NCBI RefSeq assembly: GCF_965641715.1
Contig: NZ_OZ282453.1
DNA length: 64,000 bases
From: Escherichia coli
Lineage (GTDB): Bacteria > Pseudomonadota > Gammaproteobacteria > Enterobacterales > Enterobacteriaceae
Direction: 5' to 3' (one strand)
The position numbers and the translations under genes are program-made. Each line of letters starts with the position of its first letter. The stretch's first letter is position 1. The notes under the pieces were generated by a model, which worked only from the letters and a program-made list of their open reading frames with translations, ran no database searches and was not told the DNA's origin. Of the stretch, positions 26,494 to 31,329 are shown in pieces.

Positions 26494-26877
26494 TCAGCGT
26501 TTCAACTGAAAGTGAGGCCCGTCTTTCAGTGTTTTCCAGTCCCCGCCCCATTCGATGGCAGTTCCCAGCTCTGCGGCAGCCTGCTTAAATGCCTGCGCGA
26601 TTTTCTCGTACAGAGCCCAGTCCCATGACACCTGGCTGCCAACGTAAGCCACAACATCCACCGCATCACCGGTCAGGTGACGACTGTTCATGGTCTGGCT
26701 CTTGCCTTCTGCAACCAGCTGTTTCTGGCGTTCTTTCGTGCGCAGGCCTTCCGTAATACCGAAATCAACCTCCGTCAGCTCCAGCGCACGGCGAACCACG
26801 GCAACCAGCTGTGGTTTGACGCCCTCCAGATTCTTTTCGCTGCGACGACTAAATCTGAATTTACCCGACATATTCAC
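26494..26877 (-). CDS. Endolysin, M15-type peptidase
   Basis: SRHLTGDAVDV matches SxHxxGxAxD zinc-peptidase motif; follows membrane proteins. Confidence 0.65.
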   Translation of the reverse strand: MNMSGKFRFSRRSEKNLEGVKPQLVAVVRRALELTEVDFGITEGLRTKERQKQLVAEGKSQTMNSRHLTGDAVDVVAYVGSQVSWDWALYEKIAQAFKQAAAELGTAIEWGGDWKTLKDGPHFQLKR

Positions 26878-27149
26878 CTCAACAATGGAAAGATTTTTGT
26901 GACGTTCCCGCGTGCGCGTATTACCAGTACGCAGAACAACAGATTAAAAAACACGACCAGCCAGTTACCGGGAAGAATGGTGCCACAGAGAAAGGCAAGT
27001 GGCGGAAGCGCATATACCGTCATCAACAACCAGGCCAGCCATGACATCAGCGGTTTGTGTCTGGAGTCACGACGGCGATAAAAAAAGAGCGTCGGCACGA
27101 TAAACGAGCACAACGCCACATTCAGCAATCCGGGAAGGTTATTTAACAT
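26874..27149 (-). CDS. Membrane protein of lysis cassette (holin/antiholin-like)
   Basis: ~91 aa, three hydrophobic segments; ORF track start 27203. Confidence 0.4.
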   Translation of the reverse strand: MLNNLPGLLNVALCSFIVPTLFFYRRRDSRHKPLMSWLAWLLMTVYALPPLAFLCGTILPGNWLVVFFNLLFCVLVIRARGNVTKIFPLLR

Positions 27150-27531
27150 TGCCGCCTCCTCCGCCCCGCAGGCGGGAGAACAGGCCGGACACCAGTGATG
27201 CAATATCCTGCTGGTGGATGAACGACAGAATCTTTACCGACACCACTGACACCAGTACTGCACACAATGCGTCAACAGGTGCACCGTCAAACCCTGTATG
27301 CTTTACCAGCCAGGACGCCAGAACCTCTGCGCCCAGCACGCCGATAATGAACGACACAAGAAAATGCGCCACCACACGCCAGGCTGAAAGCGCCTGCGGC
27401 ATCGTTGCCACAAATAACGCCCCGGCGAACGCACCAAACACAATCCCGAAATCCGTTCCGGTAAACAGCCCGAAGACCGTCGCTCCACCGAGCGCCGCAG
27501 CCGTGCCGGAACCGGATAAGGGTTCAGACAT
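27139..27531 (-). CDS. Holin-like membrane protein
   Basis: Gly/Ala-rich TM helices, AGGAG RBS before ATG at 27531; ORF track start 27654. Confidence 0.45.
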   Translation of the reverse strand: MSEPLSGSGTAAALGGATVFGLFTGTDFGIVFGAFAGALFVATMPQALSAWRVVAHFLVSFIIGVLGAEVLASWLVKHTGFDGAPVDALCAVLVSVVSVKILSFIHQQDIASLVSGLFSRLRGGGGGNVK

Positions 27532-27898
27532 ACTTTTTCTCCTGTAAATAAAAAAGGGCCACCAGCGGCCCGTAAAAAACACCCCGTCAAAAGCACCGGC
27601 ATCCGCAGATGCCCTTTGTGTGGCGTTATTTGATGCGCACCAGATGTGGCGCAAAGAAATGAAATAAGACTTACCGAAAATTAAGGTTAATTTGAGGATT
27701 TAAACCACTTCTGAAGCTTAGTAGTATGAACATGTCCCCGGAAGGGGGCCAATACTTATTATTCTTCATGGACTTTGTCCCGCGGTCTTAATCCGACGAC
27801 CGCGCTACTTTTTACCCTCTCGCAAATTGCTATCTAAAGGACGTTGTCCCACGAGTATTCCTGGATGCTCGTGTCTTTTTTTGTCCTGAGAAAGGAAT

Positions 27899-27922
27899 AA
27901 AAAAAACCGCCAGATATGGCGG
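27899..27922 (-). terminator. Intrinsic terminator upstream of lysis genes
   Basis: ccgccatatctggcgg hairpin followed by T8 on minus strand. Confidence 0.45.
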
Positions 27923-28858
27923 TTGGTCAATGCAAGGGATGAATTTTTTAATTGTTATTAAACCGAGGCGCCGGGTGCCTCCCGAAGTATTCCGTGCTGT
28001 ATGGATACTGTGGTTTCCCGCTAAACCGACTCTATAAACCACCCTCGCGCTGAGGAACGCCCCAATTCATGTTTTTCAACACAGAGAAGCGCATCACTGG
28101 TTACTCAACGCTAAATCCGGCTTCCTGTCGTGGGCAATGCGCCATTTCTGTGTCATAAAAAAATACAGCACTGAATCCGTAACCGATCTCCATTACAGAA
28201 TGAGGCCCAACAAAGGAATTAACGAGATCTGTTCCTCACAAAAAACGCCAGTGCTGTAAAAACTCATCAAAGAACAATGAAGGTACGGAGAACAGGAATC
28301 GAACCAGTATCACTAACCTAAAAGGCTGAAGTAATAGCCACTGTACGATACCTGTATATAGAGCGGGCCTCCGTAACCACAGTAATGATACTATAACAAT
28401 ATGATTAAACGGATGCCAGCAATGACCCGCGAGGCAGCTGGTCATGCGCCAGTGAACACAGACTCGCTGCCTTTTGGGTCGGGAGTAATATTACCGATAA
28501 ATCATATGACATCAAAAAATAATTGGTTTTAAGATTTTAATATGTGTATAAATATGTATCAGATAAATACAAATTATTTTATTTCATCCAGAATTCTGAT
28601 TTTACGCAAGAGATTGCTAAAAAATAACACAAACATGATCAGTTTGGGAACAAACCAATTCCGTTGTCGCAATAAATAACAGGAAATACTCCGGGAACAA
28701 CGGAGCGCAAGAATTACATCAGCAGTGGTTTTTGTAACGTTTAACGTTAATTGTATCGTTGATAGAAAAGCTTTGACGCAATATAGTGAACTAACAGGGC
28801 CTGACGAATAGCCCTATTACGCCGAGCTAATAGCGCTGCCAGCTAAACTTGCATGGAA

Positions 28859-28935
28859 TGGTCCGCCACCGAGGACTCGAACCTCGCACCATCAACTTAG
28901 AAGGTTGATGCTCTATCCCGATGAGCTAGTGGCGG
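28859..28935 (-). tRNA. tRNA-Arg (anticodon UCU)
   Basis: Cloverleaf with acceptor CCGCCAC/GTGGCGG, anticodon loop CTTCTAA, TTCGAGT T-loop, encoded CCA. Confidence 0.8.
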
Positions 28936-28936
28936 T

Positions 28937-29012
28937 TGGTGGCCCTTGCTGGATTTGAACCAGCGACCTGGCGATTATGAGTCGCTCGCTCTCACCACTG
29001 AGCTAAAGGGCC
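28937..29012 (-). tRNA. tRNA-Ile2 (anticodon CAU, ileX/ileZ-like)
   Basis: GGCCCTTTAGCTCAGTGG..CTCATAA..GGTTCAAATCC..CCA, near-identical to E. coli ileX as recalled. Confidence 0.8.
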
Positions 29013-29131
29013 GGGCGCAGGATAATAACGTTACAAAATCAATGTTGCAAGCATTCAAAAATCACCTGGTTAAAAATCCCCCTTACTTCCTCCACCAGCG
29101 CATTCACCATGTCTATCCGAGATAAGTGGCA

Positions 29132-29154
29132 CAAAAAACCCGCATTTCGGCGGG
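29132..29154 (-). terminator. Candidate tR-prime terminator downstream of late promoter
   Basis: cccgccgaaatgcggg hairpin then T6 on minus strand (also reads as terminator on plus strand). Confidence 0.5.
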
Positions 29155-29204
29155 TTTTGTTTGCTTTTGCCATCACGTACAAAATCGGCAAAATATCAGA
29201 TTTG

Positions 29205-29240
29205 CGTGAAATATATGCCTTTCAATCTACTTTTGCAACA
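29205..29240 (-). promoter_or_regulatory. Candidate late promoter (pR-prime-like) overlapping 3' end of Q-like gene
   Basis: TTGCAA, 17-bp spacer, TATATT on minus strand, ~50 nt upstream of the terminator. Confidence 0.35.
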
Positions 29241-29917
29241 CTTTGCTTTGAAAATGCCGCCTTTTGTTTTGAACGCGTTCTCATTACAAACAATAAAGCC
29301 CCACTATCCAGTCGGTAAAAAATGTGTTTCATTGCAACCCAGTGACGAGTAAATGTTTTGGACCAGTTTTTAGTTGTCACTCCCGCCAGTAATGCCAGCT
29401 CCTGGTATTCATAACCTTCCCCACCAAAAAGTTCTGCTTTTACTGCCTGCGCCGCCAGCCAGATTAATTTTTTCAGGCGTTCCTGCGTTTTCCCTGCAAT
29501 TTTTCTGGTACCGGATTGAGTATTAAATTCATTCCACGCCCACTGTGTTATCGCGATCTGATATTCCCAACAAATACTCCCGCTGTAACACCACAACAAC
29601 CAGGCTTTATGATGTTCTTCAAGAGACAGAACAGCCCGCCGCCACGATGATGTCGAAAACTCAACCGGACTGACCAGAGGAATTGACGTCCCCTTCGCCA
29701 GCGATTGCTTTCCCGGAATTGGTGGATTATCCCGCGTTATCATTTTTCCAGTCACTTCATCGCGGTACCGGATTTTTTTTCGCCTGTAACGCCCTGTATC
29801 GAACATGGCATTCTCTTGCCAGGCTTCAAGCTGACCTTTTGTTGCCCCACTCAAATCAGCGGTGGCGATAATGAGCTGCTCACGCACAAACTGTAAATAC
29901 TGGTTATTCATGCGCAC
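29222..29917 (-). CDS. Putative late antiterminator Q-like protein
   Basis: Call by position only: between rusA and late promoter/tRNAs/lysis; 231 aa. Confidence 0.4.
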   Translation of the reverse strand: MRMNNQYLQFVREQLIIATADLSGATKGQLEAWQENAMFDTGRYRRKKIRYRDEVTGKMITRDNPPIPGKQSLAKGTSIPLVSPVEFSTSSWRRAVLSLEEHHKAWLLWCYSGSICWEYQIAITQWAWNEFNTQSGTRKIAGKTQERLKKLIWLAAQAVKAELFGGEGYEYQELALLAGVTTKNWSKTFTRHWVAMKHIFYRLDSGALLFVMRTRSKQKAAFSKQSVAKVD

Positions 29918-30273
29918 TCCAGTTCTGTGATTTTTATCCCCAGCCGCCCACCAGGAACGAGCTGACCGCGCACAATATTGATTTCATCAAACTGCTCGTC
30001 GTCTATAAGTAGTCCGGCATGCGTCAGCGCATCCAGTGGTGCCTTCAGGATATTGTCCAGGTCGCGGCGGCGCTTATCCGGTGGCTCTGCAATAATCTTT
30101 ATCGCCAGCCTTCCGGACAGGCTTAATTTCAGCCGCTGCTGGCGAACAATTAGCGCCACATCACGGCGATAACGCTTTCCGGCTTCCGAGATGAAATACG
30201 TATTGCCATGACGTCGCCAGTAGGTATTCACCGTCGGCGGGTAAGGCAAAACAAATTCTATGCGTTCAGTCAT
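29908..30273 (-). CDS. rusA: Holliday junction resolvase RusA
   Basis: 121 aa, ..YPPTVNTYWR..RRDLDNILKAPLDAL.. RusA signature. Confidence 0.85.
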   Translation of the reverse strand: MTERIEFVLPYPPTVNTYWRRHGNTYFISEAGKRYRRDVALIVRQQRLKLSLSGRLAIKIIAEPPDKRRRDLDNILKAPLDALTHAGLLIDDEQFDEINIVRGQLVPGGRLGIKITELECA

Positions 30274-31329
30274 TCATGCTTTCCACTTCAGGACACCCGA
30301 ATTTCTCGCGTGCATTAAAAAACGAATCAGCAACAACAGCTGGCTGCCGTGTTTTTCTTCAAAATCTTTTACCCCGGCGTGCAGTTCGTTATGACATTTA
30401 CGGCACAGCGGAATAACAAACAAATCATCAGCCTTTGTTCCCATCCCTCCCAGTCCATGACCAATGATGTGATGCGGATCATCTGCCTGATTACCGCACG
30501 TCATGCATTTCTGCGTTTTTACCCAACGCGTGTATACAGGCATCTCTTCCCGTTGTGGTTTCTGGCGCTGGAGATACTGAGCCGGTGACTCCGGATCAAC
30601 GGCAATGCTGACCACCGTCTTTTCCTGTGGCGGGTTTTGCTGGTGGGCGTGAGGCAGCGGCGCAAGATTTTTTGTGCACTGCTTCAGTATGCTGGTGGCG
30701 GTCTGCTCTCCCGGTACGATGTCGCTTTCACGGTACATTGGGCGGATTTTTTCCGCACGCAACCCCAGCGAACGACGTAATACCGCTTCCGGTAGCGCGT
30801 CCGCCACCTGATTGCGGACCGCCCACCAGGATAATTCAGCCAGCGATAATTCCCGCTCCTGTGTGCCATTCATTGCGTGACGGATGACGTCAATCATCCA
30901 TGCTGACAGGTTTTGTTGAGCAAGTTGCCCGAGTGACTCTGATGTCTGGTCGCGCAGCTGGTTGTCACAGTGCCAGCACAATACCATCGCGCCAGTACCG
31001 TAACGATGTATGACGGTTTCACTGTGATGGTAGTCACCATGAGGCCACTGGCAGGATTTAATATGACGCAGGAGCCAGTCAGACAATGCGCCTGCGCCGC
31101 CAGCAGCACGAATCACCCGTTCGTCGCTGAAAAATGGCAGTAATGATTTATCTTCCATCAGTGGCTGGCGAACGGCAGGAACAATCCCGGATGGCAGACC
31201 GCGCATGCTTTTCGGTTCCGGCTCCACCAGCACTCGAGGGTTATGAAATACCTGCATGGATTCACGGCCCGGCTTTAGCACCACCAGCCCAAGTTCCGGT
31301 ACCGGAACAGGTCGAAGTAATACCCGCAC
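30274..31329 (-). CDS. DUF968-type nin-region protein with C-terminal Cys/His cluster
   Basis: 351 aa; C-terminal CMTCGNQADDPHHIIGH..CRKCHNELH. Confidence 0.55.
   Translation of the reverse strand: MRVLLRPVPVPELGLVVLKPGRESMQVFHNPRVLVEPEPKSMRGLPSGIVPAVRQPLMEDKSLLPFFSDERVIRAAGGAGALSDWLLRHIKSCQWPHGDYHHSETVIHRYGTGAMVLCWHCDNQLRDQTSESLGQLAQQNLSAWMIDVIRHAMNGTQERELSLAELSWWAVRNQVADALPEAVLRRSLGLRAEKIRPMYRESDIVPGEQTATSILKQCTKNLAPLPHAHQQNPPQEKTVVSIAVDPESPAQYLQRQKPQREEMPVYTRWVKTQKCMTCGNQADDPHHIIGHGLGGMGTKADDLFVIPLCRKCHNELHAGVKDFEEKHGSQLLLLIRFLMHARNSGVLKWKA

Follow-up and report, generated by a model that had tools for sequence, protein, structure and literature searches.

The late-operon start of an Escherichia coli prophage, with two tRNA genes, a noncoding gap, and a candidate antisense small RNA

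We analyzed a 64,000-nucleotide stretch of Escherichia coli DNA from contig NZ_OZ282453.1 (here called the window), with a focus on the region between a pair of tRNA genes and the holin gene of a prophage. The phage sense strand is the minus strand, along which the order is Q, a PR′-like promoter with the terminator tR′, tRNA-Ile2, tRNA-Arg, a 1.3-kb gap, and the holin gene (Table 1). What the first-pass annotation had observed here was borne out at every point. Taken as a whole, the locus is best explained as the 5′ end of a late operon that depends on Q and belongs to a lambdoid E. coli prophage, and we consider this explanation likely. The overall layout is ordinary and of a known kind, the start of a lambdoid late operon with a tRNA “moron”; tRNA genes and cargo slots downstream of Q and PR′ are textbook features of lambdoid and Shiga toxin (Stx) phages. 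The gap is noncoding mosaic DNA without a trace of a protein cargo gene. The sole candidate for novelty is a conserved core in the leader of the lysis genes, a new predicted member of the class of prophage small RNAs (sRNAs) that occupy the PR′ slot, and the overall novelty of the locus is modest.

Two tRNA genes at the start of a late operon

Over its late region, the window is 99.9% identical to the chromosomes of E. coli strains from pigs, ETEC1749 among them. The PGAP annotation of the ETEC1749 locus names the first gene “bacteriophage antitermination protein Q” and continues with tRNA-Ile, tRNA-Arg, nothing for 1.3 kb, a “putative holin,” a second holin, an M15 peptidase, an HNH endonuclease, and a P27-type terminase. 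Pfam assigned the genes of the lysis cassette to the holin families PF16931 and PF05449 and to the endolysin family PF13539, and it recognized RusA and DUF968 upstream. The first-pass annotation of this DNA had placed the tRNAs just downstream of a candidate late promoter and terminator, and both signals were seen again here; the leader RNA that would run from PR′ to tR′ has a predicted length of ∼70 nt. Searched against Rfam, this leader RNA (29133-29212, minus strand) gave subthreshold matches to two Salmonella prophage sRNAs, isrJ (27.8 bits; gathering score, 37) and isrK (23.3 bits; gathering score, 50), both driven mainly by the terminator and the 5′ end.

In all of the 64 kb, ARAGORN called two tRNA genes and no more; they lie on the minus strand, a single base apart. 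Both score above the gathering threshold of the Rfam tRNA model (RF00005; 29 bits), in agreement with the earlier call of two adjacent tRNA genes with encoded CCA. The promoter-like site ahead of them recurs, as TTGCA-17-TATTAT, upstream of the tRNA in the comparison loci L005, L007, L008, and L123 and in the Stx2a phage locus L122. The tRNAs may have a conserved promoter-like site of their own. The pair itself may be a moron that eases the translation of phage genes. tRNA-Ile2 serves the codon AUA, and tRNA-Arg(UCU) serves AGA and AGG; these codons are 3 to 7 times commoner in prophage open reading frames (ORFs) (per 1,000 codons: ATA, 7.3-10.5; AGA, 5.9-7.0; AGG, 5.6-6.5) than in the neighboring chromosomal ORFs to the right of ∼43.3 kb (ATA, 2.4; AGA, 0.9; AGG, 1.5). 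This enrichment fits the usual explanation that such tRNAs aid the translation of phage genes. GGA and ACA are likewise enriched in the prophage ORFs, in keeping with the Gly(UCC) and Thr(UGU) genes found in intact tRNA arrays of relatives.

A layout like that of Stx phages had been proposed at the outset, and the tRNA comparisons bear much of it out. The pair plus 48 nt upstream (28859-29060) is 85.5% identical to Stx2 phages. tRNA-Ile2 matches ileZ of phiXuzhou21-Stx2a at 76 of 76 positions, and tRNA-Arg(UCU) matches argN(TCG) at 63 of 77 (82%), versus only 47 of 77 for argO(TCT). These identities support the view that the likeness of the tRNA region to Stx phages reflects homology and not only resemblance. 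As in the ileZ-argN-argO cluster of phiXuzhou21-Stx2a and Stx2 converting phage I, the tRNAs of the window follow Q and PR′/tR′ and precede cargo or lysis genes, and the ileZ gene, the argN scaffold, and the promoter-like site upstream are held in common. The order in phiXuzhou21-Stx2a is Q-ileZ-argN-argO-stx2A-stx2B-esterase. In contrast, the window has two tRNAs and, according to ARAGORN, a single Arg tRNA where the Stx cluster has both argN (UCG) and argO (UCU); argO is missing, and the argN-type tRNA carries UCU rather than UCG. Neither stx nor an esterase gene follows the window tRNAs, and noncoding DNA with a tRNA-Gly pseudogene stands in their place. The gap holds no stxAB ORF and gave no BLAST match to Stx phages, in agreement with the initial failure to find an stx-like sequence. 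The proposed likeness holds for ileZ, argN, and the gene order and fails for the second Arg tRNA. The presence, in a nontoxigenic pig-associated prophage, of an ileZ gene identical to that of an Stx2a phage suggests that the module upstream of stx is freely exchanged.

The slot of the Arg gene is conserved in scaffold and variable in anticodon. Its homologs (n = 6, including the tRNA-Lys(TTT) of two relatives) have a mean column identity of 94%, and across related phages the same slot carries one scaffold with three anticodons: TCT (Arg) in the window, RM11911, ETEC1730, and UTAK-18; TTT (Lys) in 14EC029 and M9; and TCG in argN of the Stx2a phage. The slot lies at 28859-28935 (minus strand) in the window, 2801-2877 in L005, 1817-1893 in L007, and 4624-4700 in L122. 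The pattern has the look of a mobile tRNA gene whose anticodon has been switched, a neat case that would be of some value. A perfect 12-nt inverted repeat also flanks the tRNA pair; its arms do not covary in relatives, and we treated it as a chance occurrence.

A noncoding mosaic with a decayed tRNA gene

Between tRNA-Arg and the holin gene, PGAP annotates no coding sequence in the ETEC1749 locus. The longest ORFs of the gap, 70 and 69 amino acids (aa), overlie a terminator or the tRNA pseudogene, and a PHROG search of seven gap ORFs gave no match, so the first-pass statement that no credible ORF lies here stands. The gap is also AT-rich, as had been reported, with a GC content of 41.6% over 27655-28858 versus 50.5% for the whole window. 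The AT-richness is uneven, with a GC minimum of 27% at 28500-28700.

Local BLAST against relatives divided the gap into four pieces: a rare AT-rich segment, a tRNA-like element, a second rare spacer, and the pre-holin leader. The AT-rich segment and the second spacer (28062-28858) occur in 15 of 5,426 complete E. coli genomes. The AT-rich segment always lies 3′ of the Ile-Arg tRNA pair, in three backbones (the window type, the RM11911 type, and the ETEC1730 type), and in IMG/VR it was found only in these same three lineages. BLAST searches of phage and plasmid records found no homolog of the gap except for its tRNA-like part. In one human isolate, E. coli LR-21-1 (L006 3143-3840), the AT-rich segment is split by the insertion sequence IS1A at a position matching ∼28690 of the window, and the same locus has two extra regulator-like genes (one TrmB-like and one helix-turn-helix) between Q and the tRNAs.

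The first-pass annotation had also suggested that the gap might be a decayed moron slot, in which a toxin or other protein-coding cargo gene has eroded. Relatives do carry cargo at this place (stx2AB, TerB with DUF3927, MazF, or an IS1 insertion), and an AT-rich composition is typical of imported DNA. Against this, BLAST found nothing similar to the gap, its tRNA-like sequence aside, in Stx phages or among phage and plasmid genes, and PHROG gave no match to the gap ORFs. The three lineages, ∼85% identical to one another, share no ORF in 28062-28858, and the indels among them (1, 2, 4, 6, and 15 nt) do not follow multiples of three; all 15 genome copies are unannotated. An eroded protein gene is therefore very unlikely, and the comparisons appear to largely refute it for recognizable genes. 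The idea of decay survives only in the form of a decayed tRNA gene and recombination filler, and the AT-rich filler is itself most likely functionless.

The decayed element scored 27.1 bits against a gathering score of 29 bits in Rfam and was not called by ARAGORN. It has mismatches in every stem, a broken acceptor stem, a changed anticodon, and no CCA. Intact arrays in relatives read Ile-Arg-Thr-Gly (UTAK-18) or Ile-Lys-Thr-Gly (14EC029 and M9). Its homology to tRNA-Gly(UCC), together with these intact arrays, marks the element as a decayed array member, a remnant of the tRNA-Gly gene of an ancestral Ile-Arg/Lys-Thr-Gly array. No tRNA-Thr remnant was found beside tRNA-Arg. The window resembles the non-Stx lambdoid prophages UTAK-18, 14EC029, M9, and vB_EcoM-606R7 in its Q type, pre-holin leader, and holin-holin-endolysin cassette, and its tRNA slots are homologous to theirs. 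Unlike those arrays, the array of the window has lost the Thr gene and retains the Gly gene only as a decayed remnant, which is separated from Arg by ∼500 bp of rare AT-rich DNA.

A candidate antisense RNA in the pre-holin leader

The pre-holin leader is far more widespread than the rest of the gap. It was detected in 432 genomes (∼7-8% of genomes), 214 of which match it at a coverage of at least 80%, and it precedes two different holin types. Within it lies a ∼150-bp core (27660-27813) that BLAST detected in 370 of the 5,426 complete E. coli genomes (∼7%). Many of the matches end exactly at these two positions, which indicates that the core is a discrete unit. Carriers include ETEC1749, rl0044, the mouse strain M9, E. 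coli 042, ATCC 8739, and SE11. A pattern made from its most conserved stretch recovered 94 IMG/VR contigs; an exact-pattern search of 100,044 species-representative genomes did not find the core. The core has no Rfam match and no genome annotation, and searches of the literature for its sequence strings returned no papers.

An alignment of 45 distinct copies points to a candidate gene on the plus strand, running against the late operon. The −35 element TTTAAA is present in 43 copies, the 17-nt spacer in 44, and a −10 element reading TAATAT or TAGTAT in 44, and a run of 4-9 T residues follows hairpin H3 in 42 of the 45. In the predicted transcript, the 20-nt AU-rich single strand is nearly invariant and the mini-hairpin has 4 bp. 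A second terminator on the same strand, hairpin H2 with its T7 run, lies 70 nt beyond H3 and faces the sense terminator T1. This predicted anatomy is that of a terminator-ended, Hfq-type sRNA gene.

The folding evidence is of two sorts. Over 17 structure pairs, 96% of the alignment cells are standard pairs and 3 pairs have changed on both sides; the covariation score was reached by 0 of 500 column shuffles, and slid controls gave ∼40-54% pairing. In addition, an 81-nt plus-strand RNA folds to the predicted shape (−26.4 kcal/mol; z = −2.85; 45% of the ensemble), whereas the sense strand of the same stretch folds no better than shuffles (z = −0.78). We tentatively suggest that the core is an undescribed prophage sRNA, antisense to the late operon and transcribed from the TTTAAA-17-TA[A/G]TAT promoter, a possible reading that we hold short of probable. 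The earlier proposal that the gap may encode noncoding RNA appears half supported: conserved hairpins, promoter- and terminator-like signals, and compensatory changes are present in the holin-proximal third.

The operon might work as follows. T1 and a second sense terminator, T4, would act with tR′ to stop RNA polymerase that Q has not modified, also when it reads through from the tRNA promoter, and the holin would be made only after Q acts at PR′. The core would be a convergent antisense sRNA gene of ∼80 nt, ending at H3 or H2 and running head-on toward T1. If so, the sRNA could dampen leaky lysis gene expression in lysogens, or, like AsxR, AgvB, and the Pas sRNAs, it could be a trans-acting regulator of host mRNAs. 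The conserved, unannotated, structured leader would then be a possible new family among the prophage sRNAs of the PR′ slot. Duplex predictions between the candidate and the start regions of the holin, endolysin, and Q genes gave nothing above shuffles.

Several points weigh against this interpretation. All of the promoters, the terminators, and the sRNA itself are predictions from sequence, and the insulating role of T1 and T4 is reasoned from the layout. The antisense −10 (TAGTAT) and −35 (TTTAAA) elements of the window each match the consensus at 4 of 6 positions, below the reporting rule of the promoter scan, and the covariation statistic ignores the relatedness of the 45 sequences. The strand test, which compares G-U pairs with C-A mismatches, gives conflicting signals between hairpins, each from few independent events: H4 favors the antisense strand (98.1% paired versus 87.9% on the sense strand), whereas H3 slightly favors the sense strand (94.6% versus 92.1%). 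Finally, a 32-codon sense ORF with some coding-like signal spans the invariant “promoter” bases.

In one alternative, no separate antisense RNA exists and the hairpins would be cis-acting elements of the sense late transcript, for instance structures that process or stabilize the leader of the lysis mRNA. We regard this as doubtful. It draws on the UTAK-18 lineage, in which the antisense strand has lost its U-run and has C-A at three H3 pairs that read G-U on the sense strand; on the GGGACAA[A/C]GTCC repeats that follow H2 and H3 on the sense strand; and on the covarying multi-hairpin structure that the sense strand also forms upstream of T1. It is opposed by the unremarkable sense-strand fold of the core and by H4, where 26 of 45 distinct sequences have a C-A mismatch on the sense strand at a pair that is U-G on the antisense strand. 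The A-runs 5′ of H2 and H3, moreover, have no obvious role on the sense strand and form the terminator U-runs of the other strand.

A small protein gene is a further alternative and an unlikely one. Under it, the late transcript would be translated at the 32-codon ORF, immediately before the lysis genes, and the coding sequence would give rise to the hairpins and “promoter” as by-products. In 84 of 104 copies the ORF is undamaged and keeps its length of exactly 32 codons; the start is always ATG or GTG, and the TAA stop does not vary. Its terminal Arg is written CGA, CGG, AGA, or AGG, several other codons vary only synonymously, and the ratio of nonsynonymous to synonymous variation (pN/pS) is 0.41, the lowest of the six frames (others, 0.55-0.90). 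The pN/pS contrast is weak, however, with another frame at 0.55, and variable sites fall 17:11:16 over codon positions 1, 2, and 3, with radical replacements such as W/Q/R/L and L/N/H. Frameshifts or truncations affect ∼20% of copies, spread over at least three backgrounds, and these copies retain H4; in one lineage, an insertion in one arm of H4 is matched by changes in the other arm. The ORF lacks a strong ribosome-binding site, searches of Pfam and PHROG with it gave no match, and the peptide has no hydrophobic helix. By inspection, its hydrophobic stretches do not exceed ∼6 residues, at odds with the hydrophobic membrane-spanning peptide of a type I toxin-antitoxin system. We also considered a relationship to DUF3927 proteins and found none. 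An antisense sRNA, a cis-acting sense role, and a small protein are not fully exclusive, and the core could form a sense/antisense pair with the overlapping ORF.

Two groups of known prophage sRNAs offer comparisons for the candidate antisense sRNA. AsxR and AgvB (EcOnc01-03) are convergent “anti-sRNAs” in the PR′ moron slot of enterohemorrhagic E. coli prophages (Tree et al. 2014, PMC4104026). The candidate gene is predicted to resemble them in lying downstream of PR′, against the late operon, and head-on to the sense terminator T1; unlike AsxR and AgvB, which are 51-60 nt long, its RNA has a predicted length of ∼80 nt. The Rfam models for AgvB and AsxR (RF02702/RF02703) gave no match at E values up to 1 on either strand of 26500-30500, and at a permissive threshold the only Rfam hit in the gap was the subthreshold tRNA. 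PasA and PasC of enteropathogenic E. coli E2348/69 are antisense RNAs encoded a few hundred base pairs upstream of the holin gene (Pearl Mizrahi et al. 2021, PMC8550237, table S6) and also appear in a recent preprint (Zhu, Shabalina and Storz 2026, bioRxiv 10.64898/2026.05.13.724894). The candidate shares with them a predicted length of ∼80 nt, a location on the strand opposite the late genes and a few hundred base pairs upstream of the holin gene, and a 3′ stem-loop with a U tract, a likeness of position and architecture only. The genomic setting differs: in the phage group of the window, a Phage_holin_8 or EssD cassette is preceded by tRNAs, not by the esterase context of PasA and PasC. We rejected the candidate as a Pas homolog because it has no similarity to PasA, PasC, or PasD2 of E2348/69; blastn-short returned only chance matches of 10-15 nt, and the PasA and PasC probe sequences were absent from the window even with 3 mismatches allowed.

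Table 1. Coordinates of features at the late-operon start, in order along the phage sense strand
Feature	Coordinates	Strand	Basis or detail
Q, late-gene antiterminator	29222-29917	−	Pfam PF06323 Phage_antiter_Q, E = 1.8e-91
PR′-like promoter, TTGCAA-17-TATATT	29238-29210	−	Promoter scan, sequence; predicted
tR′ hairpin + U-run	∼29160-29131	−	Terminator scan, sequence; predicted
Promoter-like site, TTGCAA-17-TATTAT	29022-29050	−	Scan; 3′ end 9 nt ahead of tRNA-Ile2
tRNA-Ile2, anticodon CAT, encoded CCA	28937-29012	−	ARAGORN; Rfam, 72.5 bits; PGAP tRNA-Ile
tRNA-Arg, anticodon TCT, encoded CCA	28859-28935	−	ARAGORN; Rfam, 59.4 bits; PGAP tRNA-Arg
Rare AT-rich noncoding segment	28360-28858		Local BLAST; 38.7% GC
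tRNA-Gly(UCC) pseudogene	28284-28355	−	Rfam, 27.1 bits; 75-80% identical over 65 nt to tRNA-Gly of relatives
Second rare spacer	28062-28283		Local BLAST map; common only to RM11911 lineage
Pre-holin leader	27532-28061	−	Local BLAST map
Predicted multi-hairpin structure	27965-28063	−	RNAalifold; 7-bp closing stem around four hairpins, upstream of T1
Sense terminator T1, AACCGCC-ATATCT-GGCGGTT + T8	27924-27899	−	Scan, sequence
Hairpin H2 + T7, antisense-strand terminator facing T1	27850-27883	+	Scan; H2 hairpin, 27850-27873
Candidate convergent sRNA gene	27699-27813	+	−35 TTTAAA, 27699-27704; 17 nt; −10 TAGTAT, 27722-27727
Predicted sRNA	27734-27813	+	H4 (27734-27749), 20-nt AU-rich single strand, mini-hairpin, H3 (27781-27804) + U5
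32-codon sense ORF (MKNNKYWPPSGDMFILLSFRSGLNPQINLNFR)	27671-27769	−	Overlaps candidate sRNA
Hairpin H5	∼27635-27652	−	Scan, sequence
Hairpin T3	27613-27598	−	Scan
Terminator T4, GGGCC-GCTGGT-GGCCC + T6	27571-27550	−	Scan, sequence; ∼8 nt ahead of holin ribosome-binding site
Holin (lysis cassette gene 1)	27139-27531	−	Pfam, PGAP
Second holin	26877-27149	−	Pfam, PGAP
M15 endolysin	26497-26877	−	Pfam, PGAP

Terminators and other structures of the leader

Alignment of nine leaders (75-97% identity) showed that the terminators are retained among relatives. T1, the strong intrinsic terminator already picked out in the first-pass annotation, is kept in 9 of 9 aligned relatives and in 7 of 7 of the RNAalifold set, loop differences and one 2-base deletion aside. 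T4 is kept in nine relatives with no more than 1-2 substitutions, including phages with the other holin family, and the last ∼100 nt before the holin gene recur ahead of holins located downstream of DUF3927 genes. Between T1 and T4, the stems of H2, H3, H4, and H5 vary between lineages by paired substitutions; for H2, the variants CACGAG/CTCGTG, CACGGG/CCCGTG, and CACGGAC/GTCCGTG all keep the pairing.

Upstream of T1, the multi-hairpin structure comprises 37 pairs over 7 relatives, of which 2 have changed on both sides (U-A/C-G and G-C/A-U). This structure, the AU-rich spacer, and T1 could together make up the sense half of a convergent sRNA pair; no promoter for the structure was found.

A motif, GGGACAA[C/A]GTCC, that can form a 4-bp mini-hairpin occurs on the minus strand after both H2 (27830-27841) and H3 (27770-27781), and in other lineages its first copy reads GGCAA[T/G]GCC. 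The repetition suggests a partly duplicated unit. The T4 stem (GGGCCGCTGGTGGCCC, 27554-27570) is 88% complementary over 17 nt to the tRNA junction at 28931-28947, which consists of the 3′ end of tRNA-Ile2, including CCA, and the 5′ end of tRNA-Arg. This complementarity is probably a chance match between GC-rich stems.

In some genomes, PGAP calls different “hypothetical proteins” over the homologous leader, with lengths of 137 aa in UTAK-18 (L015 1404-1817), 106 aa in ATCC 8739 (L110 1597-1917), and 41 aa in L011 (1897-2022). These lie on either strand, run through terminator hairpins, and are not conserved between genomes, and they look like spurious calls. For the 137-aa protein of UTAK-18, tblastn alignments hop between frames with 35-70% aa identity against ∼77% DNA identity, and the ORF crosses T1; we rejected it as spurious.

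The module of tRNAs, leader, and holin is present twice in the LT-IIb-converting phage SerU-LTIIb (L001 1122-2456 and 3028-4127), where the first copy has a partial remnant of the second holin gene and a frameshifted core ORF. The enterotoxin genes of this phage lie downstream of the lysis genes, outside the PR′ slot.

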